Source: Trypanosoma brucei (lineage: Eukaryota). Taken from it: a stretch of 64,000 nt of DNA. Of this stretch, positions 35,290 through 53,748 are shown piece after piece; the first letter of the stretch is position 1, and every line of letters begins with the position of its first letter. The stretch covers positions 544,001-608,000 of the forward strand of contig CP000067.1 of assembly GCA_000002445.1 (NCBI GenBank), read 5' to 3'. The notes under the pieces were generated by a model. The model was given only the letters and a program-made list of their open reading frames with translations. It searched no databases and was not told where the DNA came from. A program made the position numbers and the translations under genes.

Positions 35290-35340
35290 ATTTGACTTTT
35301 CCTCCTTCAATTTTACTTTGTTGTCTTTTAAAGGAAATAT
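35290..35340 (+). promoter_or_regulatory. Polypyrimidine tract + AG upstream of ALG2 (putative trans-splice acceptor)
   Basis: ttatttgacttttcctccttcaattttactttgttgtctttt then aaAG, 15 nt before ATG 35354. Confidence 0.4.
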
Positions 35341-35353
35341 TCAAGAAAGCGTG

Positions 35354-36883
35354 ATGATTTACGAACTTGCGCTACTTATATCCACCTTCCTTGGACTTTC
35401 CATCTTTGTTATTCCCTTTTCCCTGCTGCGAACATGGACACGTAGGCAGGCGAGTAGTCGTTTCGATTCTTCTTCTGCTCGTCAACGGCACCCAACGAAG
35501 TTGGATGAGCAGGTCAACGCGAAACGTCCGTTGAAGGTTGTGTTTCTTCACCCCGATCTTGGCATTGGTGGCGCCGAACGGCTTGTCGTTGACGCTGCTA
35601 TTGCACTTCAGAGGTACCAGAAAGTGACGCCTGTGCAAGTTATTATTGTGACAAACCATCATGATCCCCAGCGTGCTTTTGCTGAGACGGTGGACGGGAC
35701 AGTGACCGTGCAGGTATTCGGTTCGTGGCTTCCCGCCTCCATAAAGGGGCGAGCCAAAGTGTTTGCTGCAACCCTTCGCATGTGCTGGGCGGCGTGGGTT
35801 ACGTGTTGGATGCACCCTGATGCGGACTGTTTCATGGTGGATCAAGTAGCCGCAGTTCTTCCGCTGCTCTCATTTGTGGCACCGCAAATTCCTCGGCTCT
35901 TTTATTGTCATTTTCCCGATCAGTGCTGTGACGGGAACCGCGATGAAAACCAGCAATACAAGAAGAAACCGTCTATCTTTCGCCTGCTTTATCGGAAGCT
36001 ATTTGATGAGGTTGAAGTCTTTGCTATGAACTATGCCAGCAGTATCGTGTCGAATTCCAAATTCAGTAGAGCGGCTACTCTGAAGGTTTTTCCCAAACTA
36101 AGCAACAGGATTGACGCCGAGGCTGACATATTCTACCCTCCTGTGTCATTGGCTGTTAGGGAAGGAGCTAAACCTAACGGTGACACAAAAGTATTTGACA
36201 CCGAGGAACTCGACAAGCTCCGGGACGCTATTCAGGGAAGAAGTGTGGTGCTCAGTATCAACCGCTACGAGCGTAAGAAGAACCTTGTATTGGCTATTGA
36301 AGCATTTGCACGTTTGTTAAACTCGGGGAAAACGACATGCAGTGGTGCTCCGTTGCTCGTTCTGGCTGGTGGGTACGACACACGGTTGGAAGAGAATGTT
36401 GCACATTTGAATGAGCTCCAAAAGGTTGCTGACACATACAAGCTTATGGATAGTCAGATTCTTTTCCTGAAGAATATAACCGAACTCGAAAAGCGCTACC
36501 TTCTTTCCCAATGTTGCTGTCTTCTCTACACACCCACATCGGAGCATTTCGGTATTGTTCCGACTGAGGCAATGATTAGTGCGAAGCCAGTTGTAGCTGT
36601 CAACCGCGGTGGACCATGTGAAAGTGTGGGTGAAGGTGGCACACTTTGTGACCCAACGCCTGAGGCTTTTGCGGAGGCTATACTTTTATATCTGAATGAT
36701 GATGAATTAAGGAGGCGGGTGGGAGAGGCGGGAAGGAAACGGGCGAGCGATGTTTTCACTATTGAAAGGTTTGGGGAGAAGCTGGCCACACGTTTTGTGA
36801 AGCTATGGACTGAAACGAACGCGGCTATGGGCAGAGCGGCGTTTTGGGGGAAATGGCTTGAGGGAGGAAAAAAGGCGGACTGA
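35354..36883 (+). CDS. ALG2: Alpha-1,3/1,6-mannosyltransferase ALG2 (GT4 glycosyltransferase)
   Basis: VVFLHPDLGIGGAERLVVDAAIALQ closely matches the ALG2 N-terminal signature. A GT4 C-terminal catalytic region is also present (EHFGIVPTEAMISAKPVVAVNRGGPCE). The start was chosen at the ATG just after a 45-nt polypyrimidine tract plus AG; an N-terminal TM anchor follows. Confidence 0.82.
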   Translation: MIYELALLISTFLGLSIFVIPFSLLRTWTRRQASSRFDSSSARQRHPTKLDEQVNAKRPLKVVFLHPDLGIGGAERLVVDAAIALQRYQKVTPVQVIIVTNHHDPQRAFAETVDGTVTVQVFGSWLPASIKGRAKVFAATLRMCWAAWVTCWMHPDADCFMVDQVAAVLPLLSFVAPQIPRLFYCHFPDQCCDGNRDENQQYKKKPSIFRLLYRKLFDEVEVFAMNYASSIVSNSKFSRAATLKVFPKLSNRIDAEADIFYPPVSLAVREGAKPNGDTKVFDTEELDKLRDAIQGRSVVLSINRYERKKNLVLAIEAFARLLNSGKTTCSGAPLLVLAGGYDTRLEENVAHLNELQKVADTYKLMDSQILFLKNITELEKRYLLSQCCCLLYTPTSEHFGIVPTEAMISAKPVVAVNRGGPCESVGEGGTLCDPTPEAFAEAILLYLNDDELRRRVGEAGRKRASDVFTIERFGEKLATRFVKLWTETNAAMGRAAFWGKWLEGGKKAD

Positions 36884-36971: not shown

Positions 36972-37303
36972 CTCGTTCCTTTTTCATCCCTATCCTATCT
37001 GAGTTTTTTTTTTTTTGATGGACTGTTATCCCTTCTTGTGCTGTGATATGTTGCGTGTCTCTCCGCGCTTTGTATTTGTATTCACGAGGTGGCACCCGCC
37101 TGCGTAAGTTTAGCCAATGATGGAATGGTGTTCGCGGTCTCAACAGTTGAGCACCTCCCCACACCTCAAATCCACCTCTTTTTTTTTTCCACTCTACCTC
37201 TTCCATCGTGTTGTGATGAACCGTTGTGCATTATGTATTTCATTTACGTGTGCTATGGAGAGGAAGTGTAGGTGCTTGTTGTGCGGTGGTTTTACTTCTT
37301 TAT
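36972..37303. repeat. Copy A of a ~331-bp dispersed intergenic repeat (near-identical to 53001-53331)
   Basis: By direct comparison it differs from copy B only in a poly-T length and one g/c substitution. It begins 89 nt after the ALG2 stop and ends 94 nt before the next ATG. It contains the polypyrimidine tract tcctttttcatccctatcctatctgag(T)n. Confidence 0.9.
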
Positions 37304-37396
37304 TTCCCTTGCGGCACCCGGTAGCGGTGGTTGTCCAGTTTCATTCTTCCTAGTAGGGTCTTATCGTTCAATTTTATCCCTGGATTGGTGCTGATA

Positions 37397-38569
37397 ATGC
37401 AGACCGGCCCATTCGCCGCCGTTACACGCGTTCCCGATCATGTGCGCAACATGATTCTGAACGAAATTGCTTCCGAGAACATATGGCTATTTGATCGTGG
37501 CCGGTGCGAAGCGGTAACGGTGGGCGATATGCGGTCCTCCTCCTTTTCTATCCCGATGGCCGAGTCTCCCCCTGCAGTTGGATGCGAATTGGATAACAAT
37601 GAACATCTTCTTCTCTACGATCTGATGCGCGTGCGTAACGGCCAGGTTATGTTTGAGAACGACCATTTCAGTCGGATACGGCAAAATTGTATATTGACTG
37701 CCCCTACAGCCTGCGATGCCGCTAACGTATCGGAGGATGAGGACCTGGGGAAACTCTCAACTTACATTGAGGGTGTGCGGTCGACGACACGAGATTTCAT
37801 TAAATGTAACCCATGGGAAAATGGAGACGTCAATCTCAAGTTTGTTACATGGGTGCTTCCTTCCCAGTTGAGCGACGTATCAACGGCAGAGAGGCGAAGC
37901 GAGCTTCTTCGAACTCTTTCCTACGCGGTTTACTACGTAACTTCCTTTTTCCCTCCGGAGGATTGGTACGAGGAGGGAACGCGTTATGCCATGCTTTATG
38001 ATGCTCAGCGGCATACACCAAATGCAAAGATCCTGCAAGTCCCCCTGCGTGAGCGAGCAAAGGCGCTTCAACAGACCACTAACGCATTCGAGGTGCTTCT
38101 TGTGTCGGATAACAGGCGGCACTATCTTGTTCCTGAAGGATCACGCTCAAACTATCTTATTGTCTCCGGTGACGAGTCATTGCTCTGTTCATTGGAGGAA
38201 GACATTCTTGTTGGCATTACTCTCCGTGTTGCTCGAAGGGCTGCTGCATGTGCTCGCCTTCCACCCCTGCGACACCGTAAGCTTGTTTTGGGGGACATTT
38301 GCCTGGCGAAGAGCATTGCAATGTTGGGTACAAGCCCCGGTGTATTACCCATCAAAGAGATTCAAGTATTCTACGATGAGGAAAGTAAACAGAATTTCCT
38401 TTTAGCAATGGAAGATTATATGCAAGACAAGGATGAAGAGATCCAGCGTGCTGTCATCAATGTGCGTGGCCGCATATTGAATGATGACGGACTACTCCGA
38501 TTGGAAAGTCCAAGCTGCGATACGCTGAAGCGCCTCAGAGCGGCCTATGAAGCGGAGGCTCTTCTTTAA
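37397..38569 (+). CDS. Hypothetical protein (about 390 aa)
   Basis: Long ORF with coding-like composition. The start was moved to ATG 37397 (MQTGPFAAV) so that the CDS does not begin inside the intergenic repeat. I recognise no domain. Confidence 0.5.
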   Translation: MQTGPFAAVTRVPDHVRNMILNEIASENIWLFDRGRCEAVTVGDMRSSSFSIPMAESPPAVGCELDNNEHLLLYDLMRVRNGQVMFENDHFSRIRQNCILTAPTACDAANVSEDEDLGKLSTYIEGVRSTTRDFIKCNPWENGDVNLKFVTWVLPSQLSDVSTAERRSELLRTLSYAVYYVTSFFPPEDWYEEGTRYAMLYDAQRHTPNAKILQVPLRERAKALQQTTNAFEVLLVSDNRRHYLVPEGSRSNYLIVSGDESLLCSLEEDILVGITLRVARRAAACARLPPLRHRKLVLGDICLAKSIAMLGTSPGVLPIKEIQVFYDEESKQNFLLAMEDYMQDKDEEIQRAVINVRGRILNDDGLLRLESPSCDTLKRLRAAYEAEALL

Positions 38570-39449
38570 TTACTGTAGGAAAAGGGTATAAAGGACTGTG
38601 CTCGTTAATGTGGAAGAGGTAGCATCCCCTCGCTTGCTTTGTTATTATTAATATTAAATTGCGGGCGACAATGCCCTAGTAAGAGATGGCTAGAGGGGGG
38701 GGGGCCGTAAGTGTTTTTTTTTTTTTAATCGCTTGTTCGTTTTACTTTATTTTTTCCCCCTAATTATTTGTTTAGTGTTCGGTTTGACACGTAATAGTAC
38801 AAGTGCCTGAACGTGAATGCGGAGAAGATGACACGACTCCGAAACTTTTGTGGTTTTGCTAAGCATTTCGGAGATCGACGGAGGGGGGAGGGTTAAAGAG
38901 TGTTTTTGTAGTGAGTTGCTTTTATATTTGTTTAGAGATCCATGCGCGTTGAAAACGACGCTTCGTAATTGAAAGATACATTTTCCCCCATTCAGTTTGT
39001 TATCGGCTCCTGTTTACTTTGATTGGGCGTCCCTCCCCATGGTGAGGCGCCTGAGTGGAAAAGAAAATATTTTTTTAAAAAAAAGACGAGTGAAAAAGGA
39101 TGCCGCTACTTGTTTTTATGACTCCGTGCCTATTACCTTACATATGGCTAACGGTTTGACAGGCAAACCTGCGAAAGCTCCACACTTCTCTTCCGCCGCT
39201 CCGTTTTCTCACCACGGCGTGTCGTCGGCTCTTTCCAACGCATTAAACGTCGTCTGTTCGGAGCTTATGATTAGTATTCGCAGAAAGTTCTAGAAGGTAA
39301 AACAATATAGTAGACGAGGGAGGTGCAGCGAGAAGGAAGGAACGTCGACCACCAGTTTGTGTGTGTGTTTTGCATTGTGAACGGGAGCCATCTACCTCAA
39401 TACCTGACATCCCCGTTGGTGCTTCCGCAGCTTTATCCGAACTGGAGCG

Positions 39450-40451
39450 ATGATATTACGGCACTCTCGCCGCCTGTTGGCGATGGAGGGGGAGCGCAAA
39501 TTCACATTTCCAAGCACTCCAGCAACTCTCAGTACTGGCGGCGTGCCCTTCTATGGTAATATTTACGCAGGACGTGTTGACACACAAAATTATGTGCCTC
39601 CACCACAAGAGGGGTCTGGACTTATCAAACCAAACAGTAGCGCGTGGGACGACCCTCAGGTGCGCTCTAAGATTGAGCGGTGCCCGTATTTTGCGCTCTG
39701 CGATCAGGTTGTATGGCACAATATGGATCCAGCTTACTTGGACCCCGGCCTCCTTACAATGGAGGAGCACCAGTTGCTGCTACTATTTAGCCGTGCATAC
39801 TATGAAAAGTGGAAGTTAATCCACAAGCGGCCGCCCAATGCTCTTCCACGCGTGCGCATTAAGTACGGGTCCACCGTTCTTTTAGAAGAAATGTTGGAGC
39901 TCATCGACGTTCCGGTGCCCGTGCGGCGTGCACTGGTAAGGGAGTTTCAGGTCGACGACGCCTCCCTTATCGCTATGGACCCCGACTGCTGGTCAGCCGC
40001 GTACCTCGACCCGTTTAACAGGGATCATTTTTCCGGTCGCGTGCTGGAGTTTGCTGACATGAGTGAGGCTCATCGTGAGAAGTTCTACCTCCTTCTGCGG
40101 CAGATGCGTCGTATTGTTGTGGTGCGACGGGATACACCAGAAGAGGAGCGGTTGGTGCTACCCTTTTCGTCTGGTATAACATTGTATGACCTTTCTAAAT
40201 ATTTAGGTATTGAGCCGTACGGTGGTCAACTGAAGGTTTACGATTATGTGGACCTCCAGAAGACACAACAGGTGATTACACTGAAGGATGAGGACAGTTA
40301 CTTTGACTACCTCGTCACGACTTTCTTTAAGGCAAACCTCCGCAACGCCACCCTTAGCGACGTTGCTGACGACATGGACAACACAGCGCGGTACACCATT
40401 ACCGTGGAGCCCTTCACTGTTGCCGAGAGGCGCATCGGACGATGGTTTTGA
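39450..40451 (+). CDS. Hypothetical protein (333 aa)
   Basis: Uninterrupted ORF with diverse, non-repetitive amino-acid composition on the transcription-unit strand. An alternative start is the ATG at 39483 (MEGERKF). Confidence 0.5.
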   Translation: MILRHSRRLLAMEGERKFTFPSTPATLSTGGVPFYGNIYAGRVDTQNYVPPPQEGSGLIKPNSSAWDDPQVRSKIERCPYFALCDQVVWHNMDPAYLDPGLLTMEEHQLLLLFSRAYYEKWKLIHKRPPNALPRVRIKYGSTVLLEEMLELIDVPVPVRRALVREFQVDDASLIAMDPDCWSAAYLDPFNRDHFSGRVLEFADMSEAHREKFYLLLRQMRRIVVVRRDTPEEERLVLPFSSGITLYDLSKYLGIEPYGGQLKVYDYVDLQKTQQVITLKDEDSYFDYLVTTFFKANLRNATLSDVADDMDNTARYTITVEPFTVAERRIGRWF

Positions 40452-41250
40452 TTTCCTTTTTTTTTCTCGCTACGTAGCGTTCTACATACTGTACTCTGCA
40501 GGTCGCATTTCATCGCCCTGGTCGGCGTCTTCAAGTGTTATTGTCGCTTCTGTGTTATCTGGTTGGGGCACTGTATACCCAGTATTTGGATGTGGCCAAT
40601 TTTGCCTTTCTTCCACTGGGGAGGGGGAGGAATGCTATTTGTTACCAGTTATTGTTGCCGCATCAAACACTGGCTCTGAGTTTTGTAGAACAGGGGACGA
40701 TTTGAGGTCACGAAGCGGTGTGAGGAGTTCGGCAGTTCTGTGTACTTTTCACCGCATCTTATTACACGACCCACCAGCTTTCACTTCTTTTACATGAACG
40801 CTCGCACTCGCTCACAATGATATACGTTAAGGATTCCTGTTTTGGGTTTCTCATTTGCACCGATCCAATTGTCGCTCACCTCCACACACACACACGGTAC
40901 CTTTACGCTAACGTACGATTTCCTATTTTTCTTTTTTTTTTTTTAAAAAATCTTTCTCCGCTTTCTTTTGTATCTTTCGGCGCATTCGTGTGTATCGTGC
41001 CGTAAAGGAAGCGACTACAATCTAGGGGCACAAGAGGAGAAAGTCAGGTAGTCTCTACGATAACGCAAGCGCCATCAGCAACATCCACTACAGTTGTGGG
41101 GAAACACAGAGCCGGTTGACATTTGTAATCATATACGTTTTCTCTCGTTGCCGACGCATCGCAAGATAAGTCACATATTGACAACTTTAGTTCTCATAGA
41201 AGTGACATAGTTACATTAACTAGGAGGAGTGAGTCTTTACGGTTAGTGCC

Positions 41251-41799
41251 ATGTCCTCATCTCGTCCTGCCACTGGGAACCGCTTAGCCGTTCCTATCCG
41301 GACAAATCTTCCCGTTCCCGCACCCCGTAAGCGCCGATTTGAATTAACGGATGAGCAACGACAGGAGATTCGCGAAGCATTCGAGCTGTTCGACTCCGAC
41401 AAGAACGGTCTTATCGATGCGCATGAAATGAAGGTTAGCATGCGGGCACTTGGATTTGATGCAAAGAAAGAGGAGGTCTTGCGCATGATGCAAGACTGCG
41501 CGGCGCGGGATCAGCATAATAACCCACTTATGGACTTAGCGGGATTCACTGATTTGATGACCGAACGCTTTGCTCAACGGGACCCACGGCAGGAGATGAT
41601 CAAAGCGTTTCAACTGTTCGATGAGAACAATACGGGGAAAATATCTCTGCGTTCCCTCCGTAGGGTTGCAAGAGAATTGGGCGAGAACATGACGGATGAA
41701 GAATTGCAAGCCATGATTGACGAGTTCGACACAGATCAAGATGGCGAGATTAATCTTGACGAATTCCTTGCCATCATGCTGGAAGATGATGACTACTGA
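41251..41799 (+). CDS. Centrin (caltractin), EF-hand calcium-binding protein
   Basis: Four EF-hands with canonical loops ([12 protein letters not shown]; [12 protein letters not shown]; [12 protein letters not shown]). Centrin-specific N-terminal extension and a conserved C-terminus (...EFLAIM). Confidence 0.92.
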
Positions 41800-43498
41800 G
41801 AGGAAGGGGTGTGATTTCAAGGAGTTGGCGTGCGAATTTATCCCTTCCCCCGATCCGGTGGGCGTAACGGTGGATGAAGTACGCGGAAACGGGGGTGAAT
41901 AGAGCGAGTTCTACTGCTATCATCAAAATTATCACTGCTATTGTTGACATTCATAGAATAAAGGTGAAAATGACGAAATGTGCGTCCACCCGTCGGCGGT
42001 GATATATATATATATATATATTTATTTATTTATTTATTTATACGATACATACTCGATGTTGGTGTGCCTTCTTGCCTGCTAAGGTTATAGACAAGGATCG
42101 TTATATGAGCTGTGTCCGCCTTGTCGATTCCCCCCAAAAAATTCACTCTTCCTTTTTTCGGCTGTCGTAAAATGTCTTTTATTGTTATTACCACTATTAA
42201 AACTATCATATTTCTGTTGGATTGCGATAAAAGAAGTTGGCGGAGGGAAAAAGAAGAAAAGCAAATGAAAGAAATTATTTCCCCCCCCCCCTGTTGGCTT
42301 ACGAACATCCAAACTTTTCCTTGCCGCTACTTTTTGCGGTGGGAGTCCCTGCCAGGTGAAGGCCGGAGAGCAGTGAATTAATCCCTTCATTTTGTTGTTG
42401 TTTGCTCCTGCCTAAACGCGGTTTGCCCCCATATCGCATTCTCAACTACCGCATCTTTACCTCATACACGTTCCTTTCTCTCTTTCCTTCTTTCTTACAG
42501 TGTAGCGCCTTCAATACCACTTTTGCATATGATTTAATAACCCGCGCAAAACGTCTGGCCTCCATTAAATGGCATTAGAACTCGGCTGAATTTTCAGTAC
42601 CTTAGCGCGGAGTGAGAGGGGCCCTTCCTCCTCCTCCTACTCCTACTCCTCCTTTATTTTTATTTTTTTTGGAAGTGTGTGCCTCTTTTATTATCGTGTT
42701 AACTGTGGTCCACTCATTCTCTATTCATTGGCCTACCACCGCAATTAAAATACACGTGTGGATGAAGACGATCCGCATGAAGGAATTACATACAGCTTCT
42801 AAGGGATGACGGGGCACATGTTTCCGTAGGGAGAAGAGGTTTATGGGTGCACATATGCATGTATGTTTGTTTGTATGCGTATGGATTTGCTTTCATATGT
42901 CTGTCCACCCTTATTTCTCAATGTATCTTGTTGCTGCCACCGCCTTTTCCCATATTTCCCTTTCGTATTCTTGACTTGGTGCTGTTGTTGCTCCCACTTT
43001 TAAAAAAAGGGGGAAAATAAAGAACAAAAAAAAAAAAGAAGAAAATACAGATATTGCTACAAACAGCGCGTGCGGTGGTGCGAAGGTAGAAAGTGTTTGT
43101 AGCAATATCCCAAAATAAATTGATTCTCTCCAAAGGTGTGGCAAAGCACAGAGTAACGAGGGGGTTGGGCGAAAATTAAAGCGGGAAAAGAATTCGAAAA
43201 AAAAACAAAAAGAAAGAAATAAAGAGAGGTGAAAGGTGAAAGAGGAAATACAAAAAGTGAAAAGTGAAAGGAAACTGGATCAAAACATTTGTCCCACGAG
43301 AACAAAAACAAAAACAATAGCAACAATAGCAGCAATAATAACAACAACAATAGTTTCCTTTTTCCCCTCTCCTCTCCCCCATCCATACATCCCTAGGGGT
43401 GGAGACGATAAGAAAAGATAAGGTAAGATAAAGAGAAATAAGGGGAGATTTCTTTTTTTTTTTTTAGATAGGAAATACAGGAGAGTAGCGGGATATCG

Positions 43499-44062
43499 AT
43501 GACGCAAAACAAGGTGAGGAAGTCCAGTTCCATCATTTCTACCATACGTGGAGCTCTCTCCTTTACACGGAAGGATGAAGGGAGTCCTGCGGGTTCGCTC
43601 GGCACCCCGCTGATACGCAGCGACCCGGTTCCCATGTGTTTCCGTCGACCCCAATCATCACATGGCTGCCCGGCTGCCAGCAATCCAACTTCTTTTACTC
43701 TTCGCTCTCATGCGATGGATGACAGGAGGGATTTACTGGAAGAGGAGGAGGCGATGTTTGGTGGATTCCGACCAAAGGAGGAGGCCCTTCGAGGGAGTTC
43801 TGGTTTTTGTATTTCATCACTTTCCTTTTCACCACAACTCGTCGCAATGAATGGGGACCTTTCACCCAGTGAGCGATGGGATGATTATGATGGTTATGAT
43901 CAATATAATAATAATAATATTAATGGTGATGATGATGATGATGATGATGATTCGAACTGTAAGTTTCATGTACACAGTGAGGAGCCGCCTGCTGGCACCC
44001 GCAAGCGAGTGGAGGAATGGATAAAGACTCAAATGCCTACCGTCAAACCAGCCGCTTCATGA
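43499..44062 (+). CDS. Hypothetical protein with poly-Asn/poly-Asp tract
   Basis: 187-aa ORF inside an otherwise ORF-free low-complexity spacer. It contains NNNNINGDDDDDDDDS encoded by (AAT)n(GAT)n. Coding status is uncertain. Confidence 0.3.
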   Translation: MTQNKVRKSSSIISTIRGALSFTRKDEGSPAGSLGTPLIRSDPVPMCFRRPQSSHGCPAASNPTSFTLRSHAMDDRRDLLEEEEAMFGGFRPKEEALRGSSGFCISSLSFSPQLVAMNGDLSPSERWDDYDGYDQYNNNNINGDDDDDDDDSNCKFHVHSEEPPAGTRKRVEEWIKTQMPTVKPAAS

Positions 44063-44280
44063 GGCGGGGGGGGGAGGGGGAAAAAAAGAAAAAAAAAGAA
44101 AGAAAGAAGGTTTTACTTTCTCCTATTACCTTGATTTCAATGAACATTGGATTCAACTTTTTCATTTGGTTTTTTTTCTTGGTTTGTGCTTGTGTTTAAA
44201 GTTTTACACCCACTCGTTATTTTCGTTTCGATTTTTTCCCCCATCCATTTCTTTTCGTTTCTACACGCTGCATAGACTGA

Positions 44281-44342
44281 TTTATATATTTATTTATTTA
44301 TTTATTTGAATGCACGAATAAAGTAAATAAATAAATAAATTA
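44281..44342. repeat. Inverted microsatellite (ATTT)5 ... (AAAT)4, a potential hairpin
   Basis: tttatatatttatttatttatttatttgaatgcacgaataaagtaaataaataaataaatt; the two arms are reverse complements with a spacer of about 16 nt. Confidence 0.8.
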
Positions 44343-45934
44343 GACGATGCTGCAAGGGTTTTTGACTTAGTTTCTTGCAGTAAATATGCAGTGATTGGTA
44401 AAAGAAAAAAAAAAGATAAATGGACAACGGGTGGGTTGTTGGGGAGTTTTTTTTTTTTGAATTAATATTATTGATTTTTTTCCACTTCTTTTTTTTTTCG
44501 TGCTGTTTCCCGTTTTCTTTTTTTTTTTTTTACTTTGGTTAACTGAGATGGTAATTGCTTTTTCTTCATTTTTTTTTAATTTTTTTTTTTTCGCGTGTGT
44601 GTGTCTGAGTGGGTTTGTGTGGCCGTGTCTCTGCCTGTTTTTTGTTTGTTTGTTTTTTTTTTTTTTTTGGTGGTGGTGGTGGTGATGGTTTAAATGAAGT
44701 GATGATCAGAAGGTGAAGGAGAAAAGTGACAAAAATGGTATAATTAATTTTAAAAAAAAGAAAAGGAGAAAAAGAAAAATTGACAACGCGTGAGAATTTG
44801 ATTGTGTGCGGGTGGGAAAATTTTTTTTTTCCTTTCCTTCCTTTTTACATGATATCAACTTTGCATCTCCATTCATGATGCCAGACACAAGAACTTATGT
44901 ATGTATGAATTAAATAATTTATATTTATTTATCTCAACATTAAAATATACGAGTACGCACATGTGTGTATTCATGATTGGAGAAAATAGAAAGGAAAGGA
45001 GGAAGTGTTTGGTTGGGTGCAAATCTTCTTCTTTCTTTCTTTCTTTCTTCTTTGTTTTTTTATATTATTATTATTATTATTTTATTTATTACTTCATTCC
45101 ATTTCCCCATCCTGTGCTTTGCCCATCTGAAGCAAACAACTGATTATTTAAGTAAAATAATAATAATATTATTGTTATTATTGGTATTGGTATTGTATTA
45201 AGATGAATTCACGGATGGAGACAAAATGAAGAGGAAAGTCGATAAGCTTCCCAGTTTGTATGCGTATTTGTCTGTTTTCGTTTTTTTTGTTTTTTGTTTT
45301 GTTATTTAGAGTGGGGAGGAGGTTTGGACGAATGAAAAAAAAATAAATGCTCTCATGCTTGCTTATACGTTGCCGCGCCCGCGTTTGTGTCTCTTTAGTT
45401 CTTAATATATTTTATGTGCTGCATTCTCTTAAGTAGTAAAGGAGAAGAGGAAGGAAAATGAAGGAAAGAGAAGAAAAGTCAAGTAAATCTTAAATTTACA
45501 GGAAAAAGAGGGAATAGGAGAACACGATAGAGTGAATAAATAAATATATCAACGGAAACGAATACATATATATATATATATATATTACAAAAGAGTCCAA
45601 CTGGAAGGTAACACGGTTGCGCGCCTATTTTGCGGATCGGTAATATATATATATATATATATATGTTTATTTGTGGATTTTGTAATTCAGTTTCCTCCTT
45701 TCCTGTGATTGTGCAATTTGGATATTTGTATTATCCATATGTGTTTGTACATTTACGCGCCCTTGTGTAATAATAGTAATTACGGTAGTATTGAGCCCCC
45801 ACACCCACATGAAGCGGCACATATATTTATTTATTTATTTTGTTTATCCCGTAGCGCTTTCTTTCGTTTTTATCTATTTTATGTTTGTAGTGGTGGTAAC
45901 GTAAGTTATTGTCACCGCTTTCCTGTGCCGTCCC

Positions 45935-45984
45935 GTACTGTACTGTACTGTACTGTACTGTACTGTACTGTACTGTACTGTACT
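45935..45984. repeat. (TACTG)~10 pentanucleotide tandem repeat
   Basis: Direct reading: gtactgtactgtactg..., flanked by (AT)n and (CA)n runs. Confidence 0.95.
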
Positions 45985-45994
45985 AGGCCGTCTC

Positions 45995-46029
<35 letters not shown>

Positions 46030-47894
46030 TTATCTTGGAATATATTTCACACTACCAATTTCGCAGTGGCGCAATGGAAATAAGGAAAGAATTAGCGGTG
46101 TCAGTTCTATCGTCACTGTTTCAACATTTCATCACAGTCAGATGCGTCTGTGTGCAGTTTTCAATGTAGATATTTTAAGGAACAATCACCATAATAATTA
46201 AGGCGCTTTTGATGCATTAAACCGCAGAGTCACGCGGTGTCGCTCTTTTTTTTTTTTTTTGTTGTTGTTATTGTTGTGTTTGCCGAGTGTTTCACCTCTC
46301 AAATAAATTTAAAATTACACAAACGTATTTACGCATATTTATATGTGTGCGCTTTGTTTTTTGTTCCCGCATGTTGTACATACCTCCGCTTCCCTTTTGC
46401 GATTATTATTTCCATTTATTTGTGTATTAATAATATAATTAGTGTTTCGACACGTGCTTCTTTTTTTTTTTTTGCTTTCCGTTATTTTACATTATTATTG
46501 CCTCGTCAAGCGACCCGGATGGCGTTATCTGTTTTGTTGTATGTCTTCATCTATGTCTTGTCTGTTTTCTGATTATCTTAGTTTAGTTTAGTTTTTTTTT
46601 CCTGTTCATCTACTCGTCTTTCCTCTTATTTTTTCCTTCCAGCATTTGTTTAAATTATTGTTGTTTAGTATGTTTTTTTTTTCTTCTATTTTCGCTATTA
46701 CTTATCACCATTGGTTTTGGAGGCTCGTCAATTATTTATTTATTTATTTACTTTTCTGCTGTGCTATTTTATTGTTATTATTTTTTCGTTCTTCTAAATA
46801 ATTCCTTCGAAGGGGAGCGGAGAATAATGTGGGTGTCATCAGAGAATGGTGAAGGGGAACTCCACTCCTTTAAAAAAAAAAAAAGAAGAAAAGGAGAAAA
46901 AAACGGCAACACAAAACAACACATGTCGTGTTGAATTGTTTAGTTGTTTGAGTGCTTAAATTGTGGTTTCGCTGGAGCAGTGAAGAGAACAAGAAATATA
47001 TGAGCATAAATAAATAAATATATTTTTATCATGGAAGTGATGAATCATTGAGTGAAATGAGTGAGTTTTGTTTTAGTGTTGTGTTGTGTTGTGTTGTGTG
47101 CTTACCTTCTTGAGGACGCGTTTGGGAGGATTATGTTGTGAGCGGAGTTACCACTCAACTTGGAGTGGAGGTGCACATTATTAATATTATTATTTTAGTA
47201 TCTGCCTTTACATACGTGGTTCTGTGGGCGTAAATATAAATATACATGTGTGACTCAGTACAAAATGTAGGAGGCAAGTTATAAGCAGCGGGAGTGCTTG
47301 TCCATGTAACCGGCCTGTGTAACGCAGCAGTTTTCTTTTCTTTTCTTTTTTTCCTTTTCCTCTTGCTCGTCTCGTTGCAAAGAGAAATTGAAAACAAAAA
47401 AAAAAAAGAAAAATAGGAGAGCAGAAAAAAAAAAACAACAAAATTGACTTCACTGGAATGGGAATTCGTTCATTACCTTTTCATTTCATTCGTACTTCTC
47501 TTTTTTTTTTTTTGACTCCCGCGTTTCTTTCTTACCTTCCACTACTCATTCAAGGTAATTGATGTTTTACTTTCTTCTTTTTCTTTTTGTTTTTTTTTGT
47601 CAAAAATAAGTAAACCGGTCCGTGGTTTTTTTATATCTGTAGGTCGTTGATCGAAACAACCACCGCCGATCAGTTTCCGAAGTGAAGGGCGGTCTCCCCC
47701 TCCTCTTTTGGGCCCGACACGTGAATAGACAAACTCACATTCATATTTAAGGAGAACGAAAGGTGTGGCAAGAACCAACCAAACAAAACACAAGGATTAA
47801 ATAAAGGGAGAATAAAAAATAAAAAATACGGTATAGATCTTCTTCATAGAAACTATCGTCCCACTCTTCTTCCTACTGCTTACAGAAATCAAAA

Positions 47895-48842
47895 GTGTGC
47901 GACATGGACGAATACGGTGATTTTGACAATAGAGACACATATGATACGGATGAGGCGGCCTTCCTCACGTCCCGCCTTGCAATGCGTGCTGAGGAAGTGG
48001 AAGCGAATGTGAGCGGCTCGCAGTTTCTTAACTCACCTCGCAATGGCAGCACTTTAGACGCAGAAGAGGACGAGGAGGCCAATTTTACACCAAATGTGTT
48101 GGGAGGTCCAACGAATGACACGCCATTATTTTACGGGGAGGAACTTGACTCGTTGATACAGTCACAAGAGCGAAATGTGGCTGGAAACGTCACGACTCAA
48201 AACATAGATGCCAGTGAGGGGGATGCGCTGCACATTGACGAGCATGAAGAAAATGATGACATCGACAATAATGACGTTGATGACGACGACGAAGGTGATG
48301 ATGATGATGATGATAATAATAATAATAATTTTCTAATTGATAACTACGAACCCCCGGAGCACACGGATATGGCGAGTGGCGGTTCCGGTTGTGAGGGAGG
48401 GGGCGACCGTACGCCGTTCGCCCTTTCCCGTGTGAGGGAGCTACTAAAATTTCATAGCAATTCGACTATTGTTTCCAAGGATGCGGTTACTACGGCATCG
48501 GAGGCTGTGGTACTCATTTTACAGGATTTGACACGAATGGCTGCGGCACAGGCGGAGCGGAACAACCGCAAAACTGTGAGATATTCCGACGTGGCGACTG
48601 TGGTGCAGCACTATGACCGGTTTTCCTTCCTTTTAGATATCCTACCACCAGTACCTGAGGTTAAGAAGCACTCATCTAAGCCAGTGCAGAGGCAAACTGC
48701 TATCGTACCGACAGGTTCAAAGGTTGGCCAAACACCGCGGAGTTCTCAGAAGCAACAGCAGCTGCAGCAGACGGGCACCCAGCGGGGCAGCCACATGCGA
48801 CAGGCCAAACTTAGTTTCGGCAATGCGGCCGACTGCATATAA
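47895..48842 (+). CDS. Histone-fold protein, H2A-like POLE4/CHRAC-16/DRAP1 family, with long acidic N-terminal extension
   Basis: The C-terminal half RTPFALSRVRELLKFHSNSTIVSKDAVTTASEAVVLILQDLTRMAAAQAERNNRKTVRYSDVATVVQHYDRFSFLLDIL aligns in order with the POLE4-type histone fold (RLPLARVK...RKTLQRRDL...DEFAFLEG). The N-terminal half is D/E/N-rich. Confidence 0.55.
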   Translation: MCDMDEYGDFDNRDTYDTDEAAFLTSRLAMRAEEVEANVSGSQFLNSPRNGSTLDAEEDEEANFTPNVLGGPTNDTPLFYGEELDSLIQSQERNVAGNVTTQNIDASEGDALHIDEHEENDDIDNNDVDDDDEGDDDDDDNNNNNFLIDNYEPPEHTDMASGGSGCEGGGDRTPFALSRVRELLKFHSNSTIVSKDAVTTASEAVVLILQDLTRMAAAQAERNNRKTVRYSDVATVVQHYDRFSFLLDILPPVPEVKKHSSKPVQRQTAIVPTGSKVGQTPRSSQKQQQLQQTGTQRGSHMRQAKLSFGNAADCI

Positions 48843-49226
48843 GTCCACGTGGTACCGCTCACTACTGTGCAGCGGCACCGTTGAATGTGGCGTGAGCGAC
48901 ACGATGCCAGTTTTTTGACATTTAGGTTCGTGTACATGCTAATGAGGAGGTGTACTTTTTGTTTGGTCTCCTTACGTCTACACAAGCTATTACCCCCCCC
49001 CTTCTCTCTCTCTCTCCACCGTGTGAGTATCGTTAAATGCCTTGTAGTTGACTTATACCTATGGCATTGTGTTGTGGGAAGAGAGACACTAAACTGCTTT
49101 TCCCTTCCCTTGTTTTCGCTGTGTCTTTGTTGTTGTACTGCCTTCGCTTCCTAACAAGTATGCTTCTGTGTTACTTGTTTCATTCTCTTGTACTTGTTTG
49201 CACTACAACGACTCTAGTGTGGTAGT

Positions 49227-50438
49227 TTGTTGGCTATATTTACTGCTGCAAGGGAAGGTAAAACTACAGGTAAGAAACTGGCCGAAGATATGTTGCCTCA
49301 TTCGGTGCCCACGTCGCCTCATCAGGAACGTGACCGGCCCTTAGAGCAGATGACGGATGAGGAGTTACGACGTGAGTTGGTGATGCTCATTCGTACGAAT
49401 GCCATTCTCGCTGAAGAGTCTGCAGGCCTCCAAGCAGATATTAGTGCCCTCTGTGAGGAGTCTGTGAGGTTTCAACAGAGTACAGAAATTGAAGAAGACA
49501 AGGTGACAAATCAGTTGTTGCGGCGCCTTCAGAGCGAGGAGGTGCAGAAACACCGCTTCCACCACCAGATCCTCTGTGAGGAAAAGGCGCGACGAAAGAT
49601 CATGGATCAAATCACACAGGTCCGGCAGCAGATGGAGCTAGAGAAACAGCTTGAACAAGAACAGGAAGTGCAGCGGATGGAACTTCAGCGAAAGCTGATC
49701 GATGTGGTGAATAAAAAGATTGAGGTGGAGCGACAGCTGCTGGAAGAACGTCGTGTCCAACTTGAGGCACTAACGACAAAACTAGCTTCCATAAAGGAAG
49801 GATCATTGGCGGCAAAGTCGAAGGTCGACGGGGCTGTTGGTTCTCGAGGAACTCAGGGGCCAAGCGCATCTTCACAGCAGTGTCAGTCGGGAACAGCAAA
49901 TATGACGCATGAATCGCCTGCTGCTGCTGCTGCTGCTGCTGTCGCAGCATCCTCTCAGCCTCCACCCGTGAAAACAGAGACGGTACCGTCATCGGTAGAC
50001 TTGCCTGCTTCCGACGTTGCGGGCGATGACACGCATGGCACCATCATTAGGTTAGAGGAGCAGTTGAACCGACTCTTAGAACAACATGCCGCCGCAACAC
50101 AGGCAAGTGCAACCAACGAGAGTCTGTGCACAGAGTTGGGTAGGAACCTAGAAACTATTCAGCAAGCAGCTTCGGTTGATAGAGCTCGTACGCTGAAGTT
50201 AAAGGAAGAGCTGCAGGAAACCAAGCGAAGAGTGGCCGTACTGGAGCAGCGCGCTGCCGTTGGCACGGCGTATGCCGCATCCGATGATAGTTCTGATTTG
50301 CCTACGCCATCGGTCTCCTCCTTGTACGATGACAAGAGACGGGAATCGCTCCTCAATTGCCACCAGCGGTACCCAAGCAGTTGTGTACCACCATCATGCT
50401 CCGCTTCTGAAGCCGGTGAAGATACACGATCCGTCTAA
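49227..50438 (+). CDS. Coiled-coil protein, unknown function
   Basis: 403-aa ORF with strong heptad-type E/Q/R/L/K content in residues about 40-190 and a (GCT)8 poly-Ala tract. The start could be the downstream MLPHSVPTS. Confidence 0.5.
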   Translation: MLAIFTAAREGKTTGKKLAEDMLPHSVPTSPHQERDRPLEQMTDEELRRELVMLIRTNAILAEESAGLQADISALCEESVRFQQSTEIEEDKVTNQLLRRLQSEEVQKHRFHHQILCEEKARRKIMDQITQVRQQMELEKQLEQEQEVQRMELQRKLIDVVNKKIEVERQLLEERRVQLEALTTKLASIKEGSLAAKSKVDGAVGSRGTQGPSASSQQCQSGTANMTHESPAAAAAAAVAASSQPPPVKTETVPSSVDLPASDVAGDDTHGTIIRLEEQLNRLLEQHAAATQASATNESLCTELGRNLETIQQAASVDRARTLKLKEELQETKRRVAVLEQRAAVGTAYAASDDSSDLPTPSVSSLYDDKRRESLLNCHQRYPSSCVPPSCSASEAGEDTRSV

Positions 50439-51169
50439 GCAGCTGACAATACCAATGCATGGGAACAACTCGGCGTCTAGGGAAGTGGAGAATTAGTCAC
50501 GTGATGTTACAAAGTAGTGGGAATGGGTATATTCGGTTTTTGAGTTTTTTTTTTGGGGGGGGGGAAACATCTTAGAAGGAATTTGGGGATCAGGGAGACA
50601 GAGTTGTGTGTGTGTAAATTCTGTGGTTGGTCCGGCAAGAAGAAAGTAACCGGAGTGATATCGGCGGGCGCTCGTCTGTGGGCACGGGTGGTTACTGCAC
50701 TTTTTTTTTTTTGGCCGTTGAGTTTTCAGTCGATTCTACCTTACTGCGCTGAAGTCCTTCGACTTAACTCTCACCTCATTTCTTTCGATCGTTCTTTTAC
50801 TTTATTCTCTCTATTTTGTTTTTTACCACAGCGATGCAGAAAAAAGGCACTTTTCAACCTGTCCTATTTCCTCCCGTCCCCATTACTCCTCCGGCTGTGA
50901 CGGTGCACTTCCCCTATTTTCTTATTCCCTCTTTGTTGTTTTTGGTTTTTTTTTTCCGCGTTTCCCCTTATGTTTCCCTTATATTTGAAACTACCAATTA
51001 TTTTCTTCATGGAAACGCAGGTACAAAAGAAAAATAGTTGTTCCTTGAGGGCGACGAGTGCTTATGTGGTGGAGCCAGTCCCCTTTCTTTACAAAATGAT
51101 GCGATCACCCTTGTAAATCCTTTTCCTCCACATGTTTGCGCTCCGTGCGTTGAGCTCGTTTTGCAAAAA

Positions 51170-51260
51170 TCGGTTCAGTTTTGTTTTATATCATTTTTCT
51201 CACCTTGCTATTTCCGTTTGTTTTTTTCCTTTCCACCTCCTACTTCCTAATGACCAGCGG
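51170..51260 (+). promoter_or_regulatory. Polypyrimidine tract + AG upstream of the MFS transporter gene (putative trans-splice acceptor)
   Basis: ttttgttttatatcatttttctcaccttgctatttccgtttgtttttttcctttccacctcctacttcc then ccAG, about 30 nt before ATG 51290. Confidence 0.4.
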
Positions 51261-51289
51261 GGTACCTCTAGTATCTTTGCTTACCCATT

Positions 51290-52948
51290 ATGATTGAGGG
51301 AAGCAGAAACTCAAGCGCCGTAAAGAAGCGGCTGGTCGCCAAACCGTTGGAGGAGTGTGCGCCGCTTAACTTGTTGGGTGCGGAAGATGTGATGGGAGCT
51401 CTTCACACTTCTTCAGTGTCATTCTTTACATGGGGAATTCTTCAGACCGTCATCGTGCACTGCTTCGCAGGTGCGCTCTTCGGTTATGGTATAGGTTTTG
51501 TAGGGCCGTACTACACACTTTACAAAATGGGAAGCGATTGTATGACAGTGACGACTCAATCCACCTGCCCGATGTTTATCCCAGAAAAGTGTACCTGGAA
51601 GGACAATGCATGTAAGTTTGTCGTTGACAACTGTAGCGGACAGTTAAAGGAGGCTTGTGGCGCCAGCAGTTCCTCAAGTGTTTCTCAAACGTGCTACTGG
51701 AACCACAAAACGAACGTGTGCCAGCCGATGGCTGGTTTTACAGCATTACAAAACGGTATCTTTGCTGGCGCGTTTATTTTTGGAGGCTGCATCGGGTCTC
51801 TCATATCCGCTCCTCTTCTCTCAGTGTCGGGACATCGAATAACCTTTCTTTTGTGTGGATTCGTTGGTACGGTAGGGGGTGCGCTGACACACTTTGCAAC
51901 TTATACGGATTCATACATGCTCTTGGTGGCGGGGCGCTTTCTTACTGGAGTTTCGGCCGGTGTACTTTGTGTGAGTTCTCCCGCGTATGTGGAGGAAACG
52001 GCACCAATACAACATCGGCAGCTCGTTGGAGTTTTCTTCCAGATTGCATGTACGTTCGGTATTCTCAGTGCTTCGGCCATGGGCTTAGGTCTTGCACAGC
52101 GAAGCTTCTCCACACAACACGACATGCAACAACGACAACAGATGTTTTGTTTGCCAGGAACAATCATCGCGCTGCTCATGATGTTTATTAGTGGACCCAT
52201 GAGGGAGAGCGTTGTGTGGATGGAACAGCGCCACCTTTCCAGGCCAGGGGAGCAGGACGATTTGGTCACCTTTGCTGAGGGCCGCGTTTCGTACGGAACA
52301 GTGATATCAAGTGATCCGAAGCCTGGATGGGGAGGTGTTAAGGGACAGCTGCTCACCGCTTTAGTTCTGTGCATTGCACAGCAACTTACTGGCATGAATG
52401 CCATTATGAACTACGCCCCCATTATCACGGACAGAATGGGCCTGGAGCCACTTTTTGGAAACTTCGTTGTTATGGCATGGAACTTCATTACGGTACTTAC
52501 TTCGATTCCAATATCCTCCAGGGCGCATGCGGACCGCGCTTACGTTGTGGCTCTGCTTTTGGCCTCCTTATCGTGCTTGCTGGTGGCCGTGGCGGTGCTA
52601 CCATTTTTTGGCTTTAGTAGCAATCTAAAAGTAAAACTGTCGGCTACCGGAATACTGCTTTTTATCACCTTCTTTGAGTTGGGAATGGGAAGTTTCTTTT
52701 GGACTCTCTCGCAGGGCATCTTCCCCCCAAACTTCCGTCACCGAGGATCAAGTTTTACGGTGCTTGTTCATTTTTTAATTAACATCGTTATTAACGTAGG
52801 GTTTCCCCTTGCGGTGGAGTGGCTCTCGGGTGGTCCCTCAGGAAACCAAGATGTTGGAATGGGCATTGCTTTCCTCTTTTTTGGTATTGTGGGTCTCCTG
52901 TCAACTGCCTACCTGCACAGGCATTTACGCTTATGGCAATCATCTTAG
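51290..52948 (+). CDS. MFS sugar (hexose) transporter-like permease
   Basis: 552 aa with about 12 predicted TM segments and sugar-porter-like motifs (GRFLTGVSAGV...; PAYVEETAP; QQLTGMNAIMNYAP). There is a Cys-rich (8 Cys) extracellular loop between TM1 and TM2, as in trypanosomatid hexose transporters. Confidence 0.7.
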   Translation: MIEGSRNSSAVKKRLVAKPLEECAPLNLLGAEDVMGALHTSSVSFFTWGILQTVIVHCFAGALFGYGIGFVGPYYTLYKMGSDCMTVTTQSTCPMFIPEKCTWKDNACKFVVDNCSGQLKEACGASSSSSVSQTCYWNHKTNVCQPMAGFTALQNGIFAGAFIFGGCIGSLISAPLLSVSGHRITFLLCGFVGTVGGALTHFATYTDSYMLLVAGRFLTGVSAGVLCVSSPAYVEETAPIQHRQLVGVFFQIACTFGILSASAMGLGLAQRSFSTQHDMQQRQQMFCLPGTIIALLMMFISGPMRESVVWMEQRHLSRPGEQDDLVTFAEGRVSYGTVISSDPKPGWGGVKGQLLTALVLCIAQQLTGMNAIMNYAPIITDRMGLEPLFGNFVVMAWNFITVLTSIPISSRAHADRAYVVALLLASLSCLLVAVAVLPFFGFSSNLKVKLSATGILLFITFFELGMGSFFWTLSQGIFPPNFRHRGSSFTVLVHFLINIVINVGFPLAVEWLSGGPSGNQDVGMGIAFLFFGIVGLLSTAYLHRHLRLWQSS

Positions 52949-53000
52949 ACACCGAGTGGTGTGTACAGGCTGCTTTCTCTTTTCAGAGTAATGCAGCTGG

Positions 53001-53331
53001 CTCGTTCCTTTTTCATCCCTATCCTATCTGAGTTTTTTTTTCTTGATGGACTGTTATCCCTTCTTGTGCTGTGATATGTTGCGTGTCTCTCCGCGCTTTG
53101 TATTTGTATTCACGAGGTGGCACCCGCCTGCGTAAGTTTAGCCAATGATGGAATGGTGTTCGCGGTCTCAACAGTTGAGCACCTCCCCACACCTCAAATC
53201 CACCTCTTTTTTTTTTCCACTCTACCTCTTCCATCGTGTTGTGATGAACCGTTGTGCATTATGTATTTCATTTACGTGTGCTATGGAGAGGAAGTGTAGC
53301 TGCTTGTTGTGCGGTGGTTTTACTTCTTTAT
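53001..53331. repeat. Copy B of the ~331-bp dispersed intergenic repeat (near-identical to 36972-37303)
   Basis: Begins 53 nt after the MFS transporter stop codon and ends 418 nt before the next ATG. See copy A for the sequence comparison. Confidence 0.9.
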
Positions 53332-53748
53332 CTTTTGCTTTTTCGCTTCACCAAAAATGTTTACCCTGCCGGGGAGGGAGGAGAGGAGCTTACGATTTTT
53401 TACTGTACTGAAGATTGCATTTTCTTCTAGATACATTTCTGAGGCCGTTCCACACAAACACAGTATTACTGTCGAGAATTTGGATAGTTATTTTATTTCC
53501 TTGTTGTTTCGATTTTTCTTTTATTCATCCATGCCTCAGGCTCTGCGTGTTTATCATTCCATCTGTACGCGCATATCTGTGTTTTGGTTCGTTGGTTGGT
53601 GTGCAGCGAGGTGGATCATCCTTGATATACATACATATATATATATATTTATATATATATTTGTTTCACTCTCTCCTGTTAGGTAAAGCATCACGAGGAA
53701 GAGGGAAAGCAAGAGTAAAAGTAACTAATTGGCGCCCCAGAAGGGAAA

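Follow-up and report, generated by a model that had tools for sequence, protein, structure and literature searches.

We found that the spacers behind two unrelated genes on Trypanosoma brucei chromosome 4, the ALG2 mannosyltransferase gene (Tb927.4.2230) and a putative glucose transporter/MFS gene (Tb927.4.2290), carry direct, near-identical copies of one non-coding element, and that in three Trypanozoon genomes these copies change in a manner which points to concerted evolution by gene conversion. The reading we favor, and consider probable, is that the pair is a locally duplicated two-copy spacer, a low-copy intergenic direct repeat of the RAG kind, whose copies have been held alike by conversion.

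A near-identical pair in three genomes

The window, the whole 64-kb stretch of DNA that was analyzed, is from strain TREU927, and the proteins it encodes match those of TREU927 chromosome 4 exactly. Positions are given in the window; adding 544,000 yields the chromosome 4 coordinate, an offset that follows from the placement of the Tb927.4.2300 coding sequence at 597749-599869 in Kolev file 19. Comparison of the window with itself identified two plus-strand copies of 332 nt (copy A) and 331 nt (copy B), whose starts lie 16,029 bp apart (Table 1). They are about 99.1% identical, differing by two substitutions, T/C in the first T-run (the C is at 53042 in copy B) and G37272 versus C53300, and by one 1-nt indel, which is the length of that same T-run. 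The original prediction had noticed the near-identical element behind two unrelated genes and the length difference, but had counted one substitution where there are two. It had also described the surroundings as unique, and indeed similarity stops sharply at both ends, the flanks being unrelated at once, and there are no further long repeats in the 64 kb, only low-complexity families. Both copies lie wholly between annotated stop and start codons with no called gene inside either, and both begin within the predicted 100 nt of a stop codon: copy A 88 nt after that of ALG2 (at 36883) and copy B 52 nt after that of Tb927.4.2290 (at 52948). The statement that copy A fills nearly the whole interval between its genes was somewhat overstated, as it covers 332 of 513 nt. 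Only these two copies were seen in the window and in approximately 43 kb from each of two other subspecies genomes; the element may have a larger dispersed family beyond the DNA examined. The block that they bracket includes a centrin gene as well as the putative glucose transporter gene and has an AT-rich core at 42-47.8 kb.

Table 1. Positions in the window of the repeat copies, their neighboring genes and mapped or predicted processing signals.
Feature	Position	Strand	Remarks
ALG2 mannosyltransferase CDS (Tb927.4.2230), 5' of copy A	35354..36883	+	Pfam GT1 match; exact match XP_844373
Repeat copy A, 332 nt, ALG2 (Tb927.4.2230)/Tb927.4.2240 spacer	36972..37303	+	Window comparison; same junctions in other subspecies
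Internal pyrimidine tract CCTCT10CC, copy A	37175..37190	+	Twin in copy B at 53203-53218
15.7-kb block bracketed by the repeats, six annotated genes, Tb927.4.2240 to Tb927.4.2290	37304..53000	+	
AG acceptor, major SL-addition site of Tb927.4.2240	37323..37324	+	Kolev et al. 2010, supplementary file 28
Aminotransferase class IV domain protein CDS (Tb927.4.2240), 3' of copy A	37397..38569	+	
Putative glucose transporter/MFS CDS (Tb927.4.2290), 5' of copy B	51290..52948	+	
Repeat copy B, 331 nt, Tb927.4.2290/Tb927.4.2300 spacer	53001..53331	+	Window comparison; same junctions in other subspecies
AG acceptor, major SL-addition site of Tb927.4.2300	53681..53682	+	Kolev et al. 2010, supplementary file 28
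Conserved hypothetical 706-aa CDS (Tb927.4.2300), 3' of copy B	53749..55869	+	

Is the identity of the copies a sign of recent origin, or has it been maintained? We compared TREU927 with T. b. gambiense DAL972 and T. b. equiperdum (GCA_003543875.1), in both of which the two copies are present at identical junctions (copy A at 11619-11954 of L007 in T. b. gambiense and 11619-11950 of L006 in T. b. equiperdum; copy B at 11712-12042 of L005 and 11712-12045 of L004 in the two subspecies). No site distinguishes A from B consistently in all three genomes. Instead, at three sites (columns 196, 218, and 273 of alignment A3) the two TREU927 copies share one allele and all four copies in the remaining genomes have the alternative, and the copies within a genome differ by 1-3 substitutions whereas orthologous copies differ by 4-7 between TREU927 and the others. 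Since the three sites switch in both copies together, we conclude that the copies have been homogenized by gene conversion, a pattern seen at three sites in assemblies that give one haploid consensus for a diploid organism. Very recent transposition or duplication, or ongoing gene conversion, had been offered as explanations of the high identity; concerted evolution in three genomes supports the part of this that named duplication or ongoing conversion.

Gene order was compared with the outgroups T. vivax and T. theileri, both less close than T. congolense, the closest outgroup. ALG2 adjoins the aminotransferase gene in both species and the transporter gene adjoins the Tb927.4.2300 orthologue in T. 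vivax, and because this order is kept the 16-kb six-gene block is ancestral and was not inserted. The element itself is absent from, or undetectable in, the T. vivax and T. theileri spacers. With the element subtracted, the spacer at A would measure 181 nt where those of the two outgroups measure 422 and 954 nt, and the spacer at B 469 nt where that of T. vivax measures 310 nt; judging only from these lengths and the positions of the splice sites, the most likely direction of copying is from A to B. We propose that in the Trypanozoon ancestor a 332-bp segment, most likely of the ALG2-Tb927.4.2240 spacer, would have been copied into the spacer after the transporter gene, which belongs to the same polycistron and lies 16 kb downstream, and that intrachromosomal gene conversion, through homologous recombination of one copy with the other, would afterwards have kept them nearly identical. 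Copying would have been at the DNA level rather than RNA-mediated, because the element crosses a predicted poly(A) zone and a pyrimidine tract and has neither a terminal A-tail nor a target-site duplication.

Processing signals in the two spacers

Both copies occupy mRNA-processing spacers, and each has the polypyrimidine tract that had been predicted (T13 in copy A and T9CT2 in copy B, plus CCTCT10CC in both). Mapping of spliced leader (SL) addition sites onto the two copies, as had been suggested with the original prediction, revealed different arrangements. The major SL site of Tb927.4.2240 is 581325, window position 37325 (mean 581309, spread 18.6; Kolev file 28), with its acceptor 20 nt beyond the end of copy A, and the pyrimidine run spans the 3' boundary of that copy, as TTTTACTTCTTTAT within it and TTCCCTT immediately outside. 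The SL site of Tb927.4.2300 is 597683, window position 53683 (spread 5.4; Kolev file 28), and this gene is spliced at a pyrimidine tract of its own; the acceptor is 351 nt downstream of copy B and is, therefore, not supplied by the repeat. ALG2 has its own SL site at 35334, giving a 5'UTR of 20 nt (Kolev et al. 2010 data).

The published distance between poly(A) and splice sites has a median of 142 nt (interquartile 123-178), and from these values the ALG2 poly(A) zone is predicted at about 37147-37202, at the internal tract of copy A. Most of the ALG2 3'UTR would accordingly come from copy A, together with the predicted poly(A) zone and a pyrimidine tract, and this copy would probably also hold minor splice-acceptor AGs for Tb927.4.2240; copy B would most likely be a passive passenger in a longer transporter 3'UTR. 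The function of the element thus appears to be that of an ordinary mRNA-processing spacer, with its membership in the 3'UTRs being a prediction.

Selection, retroposition and older duplication

Could selection, rather than conversion, account for the identity of the copies? A cis-regulatory 3'UTR module under selection for joint control of ALG2 and the transporter, and/or of their downstream genes, would fit the predicted location of at least the first ~210 nt of the element inside both 3'UTRs, its UGUA-type and U-rich motifs, and the published translational up-regulation of Tb927.4.2290 in bloodstream forms. We consider this explanation rather unlikely, however. Between subspecies the element diverges by 1.2-2.1% and neighboring spacers by 0-1.3%, so that it is no more conserved than spacers or coding sequence, and its identity within a genome is accounted for by conversion rather than constraint. 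There is no fold signal (z-score -1.06), the corresponding spacers of T. vivax and T. theileri showed no homologue and, as weak evidence, the published table of translationally stage-regulated genes lists Tb927.4.2290 but not ALG2. The co-regulation suggested by the original prediction for the flanking gene pairs thus gains no support from conservation, folding or that table, nor from the gene downstream of copy B, with its remote splice site.

A retroposon origin had also been suggested; on that reading a short retroposon, either non-autonomous or extinct, or a retroposon fragment (related to RIME, TbSIDER or SIRE) would have inserted independently at two sites and would now supply UTR and processing signals. 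An element of ~330 bp that is non-coding and directly follows stop codons does recall the LmSIDERs, and its minus strand has an A13 run 33 nt from the element end, within a stretch that is 60% A. Retroposons of this kind are recognized by a 5' signature of 79 bp, a 3' adenosine-rich stretch and a target-site duplication (12 bp for ingi/RIME) (Bringaud et al. 2007, PMC2323293). No direct repeat of at least 7 bp flanks either copy, the longest k-mer shared by the boundary zones of each copy being 6 nt and situated away from the junction. The plus-strand 3' terminus is not A-rich, ending in ...GGTTTTACTTCTTTAT, and the A13 run of the minus strand is not terminal. A search of the element against Rfam, HDV-like ribozyme models included, returned nothing, which is a weak negative for the retroposon signature. 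Composition also argues against such an origin: the element has a GC content of 44% relative to 47.7% for the window, whereas retroposons are richer in GC than the genome (RIME 53.8% versus 41%; Bringaud et al. 2007, PMC2323293), and a T content of 41% gives it the strand composition of ordinary sense-strand spacer. Moreover, the gene clusters of T. brucei contain only 38 retroposons and 22 TbSIDERs (Bringaud et al. 2007, PMC2323293), and copies A and B, the only two in the DNA reached, have the same ends and orientation and are 16 kb apart. We regard a SIRE/SIDER/RIME-type origin as very unlikely.

It seems more improbable still that the pair is all that survives of a larger and ancient duplication, segmental or tandem, the remainder of which has decayed. 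Direct repeats in one chromosome and one transcription unit would be expected of such a remnant, but the homology breaks off sharply at each junction and does not fade into the flanks, the flanking genes are all single-copy with an order conserved in outgroups, and 99% identity would fit an ancient origin only if conversion were called upon in any case. Finally, an assembly artefact, that is, a collapsed or misjoined reference contig, which had been allowed for from the outset and might be suspected from the mishandling of the repeat in a short-read assembly of T. equiperdum OVI, is ruled out for practical purposes, as A and B differ at three positions in the window itself and both occur at the same junctions, with locus-specific variants, in the reference and in two further assemblies, all three of chromosome scale and produced independently.

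Known repeat classes and recombination between the copies

The local duplication maintained by conversion that we favor has close counterparts in the RAG pairs of Ubeda et al. (2014, PMC4028189), which are intergenic repeats of 200-2,500 bp with at least 85% identity on one chromosome, direct or inverted and typically 1-100 kb apart, with a position conserved among relatives. The present copies are likewise non-coding and intergenic, 332/331 nt long at 99.1% identity, direct and 16,029 bp apart on chromosome 4, and conserved in position among TREU927, DAL972, and T. b. equiperdum. Ubeda et al. (2014, PMC4028189) counted 773 such repeats in T. brucei, and 242 of the 507 RAGs of L. major are simple pairs; rearrangements were confirmed by PCR at four other T. 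brucei pairs, which are on chromosomes 2, 3, 6, and 7 and not on chromosome 4. Concerted evolution of a pair across subspecies, as observed here, is not part of their description of RAGs. By analogy, we take our pair to be a further instance of this known trypanosomatid class of low-copy intergenic repeats, a class that can drive local rearrangement.

Other repeats offer less complete parallels. LmSIDER1/2 and TbSIDER (PMC2323293) are also short, non-coding and located in 3'UTRs just after stop codons, and Leishmania SIDERs double as recombination platforms and as elements of mRNA stability or translation (Bringaud et al. 2007, PMC2323293); unlike that degenerate family, our element was seen as two near-identical copies and has no target-site duplication, terminal A-rich stretch or raised GC content. 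Repeat-mediated deletion is documented in T. brucei for FRDg/FRDm2 and the AQP2/AQP3 chimera (Wargnies et al. 2021, PMC8065229), where, as here, direct repeats of a few hundred base pairs lie on one chromosome; there they feed a stochastic recombination that alters gene dosage. Those repeats are coding paralogues whose recombinants were selected experimentally, whereas the present repeat is non-coding and its recombination products are inferred.

What might those products be? A direct repeat of 330 bp and 99% identity would be a substrate for RAD51-type recombination, by which the six-gene block could be deleted, excised as a circle or duplicated in tandem. A junction of the recombinant kind exists in T. 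equiperdum OVI, where contig CZPT02000920.1, assembled with Velvet (k=33) from digitally normalized reads, joins transporter, repeat and aminotransferase, and the OVI contigs with ALG2 and Tb927.4.2300 stop 32 and 31 nt into the repeat. A short-read misjoin is at least as likely an explanation of this junction, and we think it unlikely that the repeats have truly recombined in this natural Trypanozoon isolate to form a tandem duplication or extrachromosomal circle of the 16-kb six-gene block. In T. brucei no stable amplification has been seen; if the junction were real, OVI would be a natural case of repeat-mediated segmental amplification in a lineage whose genes are said not to be stably amplified, and the copy number of a block containing a transporter gene would have changed naturally in Trypanozoon.

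We conclude that by itself this pair is a small and ordinary feature of a genome for which several hundred low-copy intergenic repeats have already been counted. As a worked example, it illustrates how a 330-bp repeat suffices to trick short-read assemblies into a circularly permuted contig, how a duplicated spacer may donate 3'UTR sequence to an unrelated mRNA and, from the pattern in the genomes compared, how gene conversion, rather than recent origin or selection, would maintain such a pair across subspecies.

A direct repeat in two intergenic spacers

The original prediction of two near-identical elements in unrelated intergenic spacers was confirmed by alignment, as copies A and B (see table) form a direct repeat with copies 16,029 bp apart and 99.1% identical. 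The differences had been counted by eye as one substitution and one length change; the length change (one T in the first T-run) stands, but the alignment gives two substitutions rather than one, a T/C within the first T-run (C at 53042) and G37272 versus C53300. Alignment of the flanks showed that similarity breaks off abruptly at both ends of the repeat, and the all-window search found no further repeats in the 64 kb except low-complexity tracts.

Every gene in the window is on the + strand, and four of the window proteins are identical to T. brucei brucei TREU927 chromosome 4 proteins. Copy A starts 88 nt past the ALG2 stop codon and ends 93 nt short of the Tb927.4.2240 ATG, and copy B starts 52 nt past the stop codon of the transporter gene and ends 417 nt short of the Tb927.4.2300 ATG. 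Between them lie Tb927.4.2240 to Tb927.4.2290, six annotated genes in all, together with an AT-rich core of 5.8 kb. This mid-block core has a GC content of 33-42% and carries long runs of T as well as (TA)n and (TTTA)n tracts. Kolev et al. (2010) list two novel transcripts here, Tb4.NT.19 and Tb4.NT.20, whose SL sites map to window ~42507 and ~43020. Trinucleotide runs of (GAT/AAT)n at 43871-43966 and 48282-48341, inside an ORF and the histone-fold gene, respectively, would be low-complexity Asp/Asn-rich coding repeats.

Features of the repeat pair and its surroundings (window positions; chromosome 4 position = window + 544,000, from published chromosome coordinates)
Feature	Position	Strand	Gene	Protein	Basis
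Repeat copy A, 332 nt	36972-37303	+			direct reading, alignment, all-window repeat search
Repeat copy B, 331 nt	53001-53331	+			direct reading, alignment, all-window repeat search
ALG2		+	Tb927.4.2230	XP_844373	identical protein
Aminotransferase class IV domain protein		+	Tb927.4.2240	XP_844374	identical protein; gene ID from published tables
Gene after aminotransferase	39450-40451	+	Tb927.4.2250
AT-rich core	42000-47800
ORF with (GAT/AAT)n run	43499-44062
Histone-fold gene	47895-48842	+
"Glucose transporter, putative"	51290-52948	+	Tb927.4.2290	XP_844379	identical protein; gene ID from published tables
Conserved hypothetical protein		+	Tb927.4.2300	XP_844380	identical protein

Exchange of sequence between the copies

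An assembly artefact, named at the outset as a result that would undo the observation, can be set aside. Gene order, both copies and their junctions are as in TREU927 in T. b. gambiense DAL972 and also in a chromosome-level assembly of T. b. equiperdum (GCA_003543875.1), and the repeat pair is thus real and older than the subspecies.

What, then, has kept the two copies alike? We aligned the six copies, two from each of the three genomes (alignment A3), and found no site at which every A copy differs from every B copy. At columns 196, 218 and 273 both TREU927 copies have one allele and both gambiense and both equiperdum copies have the other. Paralogous copies within a genome are 1-3 substitutions apart, whereas orthologous copies are 4-7 substitutions apart between TREU927 and gambiense or equiperdum. 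Because the junctions are identical everywhere, the duplication predates the subspecies split, and independent evolution of the copies would then require the same change to have arisen in parallel at three sites within 332 nt at ~1% divergence, which is implausible. The alignment therefore bears out the earlier alternative of "duplication or gene conversion" and sharpens it: the pattern of three concerted sites and zero A/B-fixed sites shows that the copies exchange sequence, and gene conversion (or repeated unequal exchange) explains the 99% identity with no recent origin required. The element itself is not unusually conserved between subspecies, diverging by 1.2-2.1% compared with 0-1.3% for neighbouring spacers and 0.2-1.5% for coding sequence.

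Copy A of gambiense (L007, 11619-11954) and of equiperdum (L006, 11619-11950) has two variants that copy B lacks, a C-to-T substitution and a TTT insertion that makes the second T-tract 3 nt longer; in TREU927 copy A equals copy B at these positions. These variants suggest that one copy converted the other, in either direction, within a single lineage.

A different arrangement was found in T. equiperdum OVI, where a short-read draft contig (CZPT02000920.1, 1-14218) reads transporter, repeat, aminotransferase, with a single repeat copy at 7287-7617, as might be seen if the block were mobile or amplified. The contig represents the 16-kb unit in circularly permuted order, window 45647-53331 being joined to 36972-43919, which is the exact junction expected from a circle or a tandem duplication, and its N-gaps lie elsewhere, with none at the repeat. 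A misjoin by the assembler, Velvet (k=33, digitally normalised 2x150 reads), is at least as likely an explanation: within the repeat, the OVI ALG2 contig stops after 32 nt and the OVI Tb927.4.2300 contig begins 31 nt before the end, the k-1 overhangs expected of a collapsed repeat. In addition, an independent k=31 assembly (a Logan contig of run ERR7929159) stops exactly 30 nt into copy A (contig positions 1650-1679), implying that the element is repeated in that sample too. We treat a real recombinant in OVI as unproven and consider it improbable. The OVI contig breaks (window 43919 and 45647) are inside the AT-rich core. In the same contig Tb927.4.2250 is called at 402 aa (9764-10984), whereas the calls in TREU927, gambiense and T. 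b. equiperdum are all 333 aa; a different start codon, a shift of frame or the N run at 10749-10760 may be the cause.

mRNA processing at the two spacers

The SL-addition sites mapped by Kolev et al. (2010) place the major site of Tb927.4.2240 at window 37325, with its acceptor AG (37323-4) 20 nt past the end of copy A and preceded by a pyrimidine run straddling the repeat boundary. The sites of this gene have a weighted mean of 37309 and a spread of 18.6, which implies minor splice sites at AGs within the element (37265 and 37270). The major site of Tb927.4.2300 is at 53683 (spread 5), 351 nt beyond copy B, so its acceptor does not come from copy B.

Poly(A) sites of Tb927.4.2230 and Tb927.4.2290 are absent from the Kolev et al. 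(2010) table and from the UTRme and Jensen supplements. If we apply the published median distance of 142 nt (interquartile 123-178) between a poly(A) site and the next splice site downstream, the ALG2 site is predicted at ~37183, within copy A by the CCTCT10CC tract, and the transporter site at ~53541, past copy B, in which case the element would contribute its first ~210 nt, or more, to both 3'UTRs. Co-regulation of the flanking gene pairs, as originally proposed, is unsupported. Stage regulation of the transporter gene is mainly translational, with a log2 translation efficiency, bloodstream versus procyclic, of ~+2 (Jensen et al., 2014, Table 2); ALG2, which has the same repeat in its 3' spacer, is absent from that table.

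Origin and class of the repeat

Since the element crosses both the predicted poly(A) zone and the pyrimidine tract, it is unlikely to have been copied from a mature mRNA, and we infer a duplication at the DNA level. Gene order in T. theileri (ALG2, aminotransferase, centrin, histone-fold gene) is as in T. brucei, and in T. vivax the aminotransferase comes next after ALG2, as the Tb927.4.2300 orthologue does after the transporter. The same order in these outgroups rules out the 16-kb block as an insertion or integrated circle bounded by repeats and indicates that the block is ancestral, one of the two spacers having gained the element. The T. theileri and T. vivax spacers gave no homologue of the element, only poly-T and low-complexity matches. 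Without the element, the ALG2-Tb927.4.2240 spacer would shrink to 181 nt, whereas its T. theileri and T. vivax orthologues measure 422 and 954 nt; the transporter-Tb927.4.2300 spacer would be 469 nt, compared with 310 nt in T. vivax. These lengths, and the separate splice site that the B spacer has well beyond the element, make copy A the likelier original.

Trypanosomatid retroposons are recognised by a 79-bp 5' signature, an A-rich 3' end, a target-site duplication and GC above background, and only 38 of them, along with 22 TbSIDERs, were counted in T. brucei gene clusters (Bringaud et al., 2007). The suggested retroposon-family origin is unsupported: neither copy has a flanking duplication of at least 7 bp or a terminal A-rich stretch (an A13 on the minus strand sits 33 nt inside the element end), and the element, at 44% GC versus 47.7% for the window, is T-rich like sense-strand spacer. 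Rfam searches (window at gathering threshold, element at E<=10) and a tRNA scan gave only one chance match (6A RNA, E=5.5), and folding of the element as RNA gave no signal (z = -1.06). A protein search for further copies with its 89-aa minus-strand frame gave no candidate, exact look-up of its 48-aa plus-strand ORF gave no record, and exact 33-mers had 0 hits in metagenome and prokaryote genome collections, which hold no trypanosome genomes and are hence uninformative.

A better match is the class of low-copy repeats screened by Ubeda et al. (2014), that is, intergenic repeats of 200-2,500 bp with at least 85% identity on the same chromosome, which are mostly confined to a single chromosome at spacings of 1-100 kb, are shared between species, and whose recombination as direct repeats produces circles or deletions. 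L. major has 1,926 such repeats in 507 groups, 242 of them simple pairs, and T. brucei has 773, with PCR-confirmed rearrangements at four pairs on chromosomes 2, 3, 6 and 7 (Ubeda et al., 2014). The A/B pair agrees with these repeats in every sequence criterion but lies on chromosome 4, which has none of the four T. brucei primer pairs. Deletions mediated by repeats have been documented in T. brucei under selection (Wargnies et al., 2021). We conclude that the A/B pair is a member of a known repeat class, individually undescribed before, and that its overall significance is modest.
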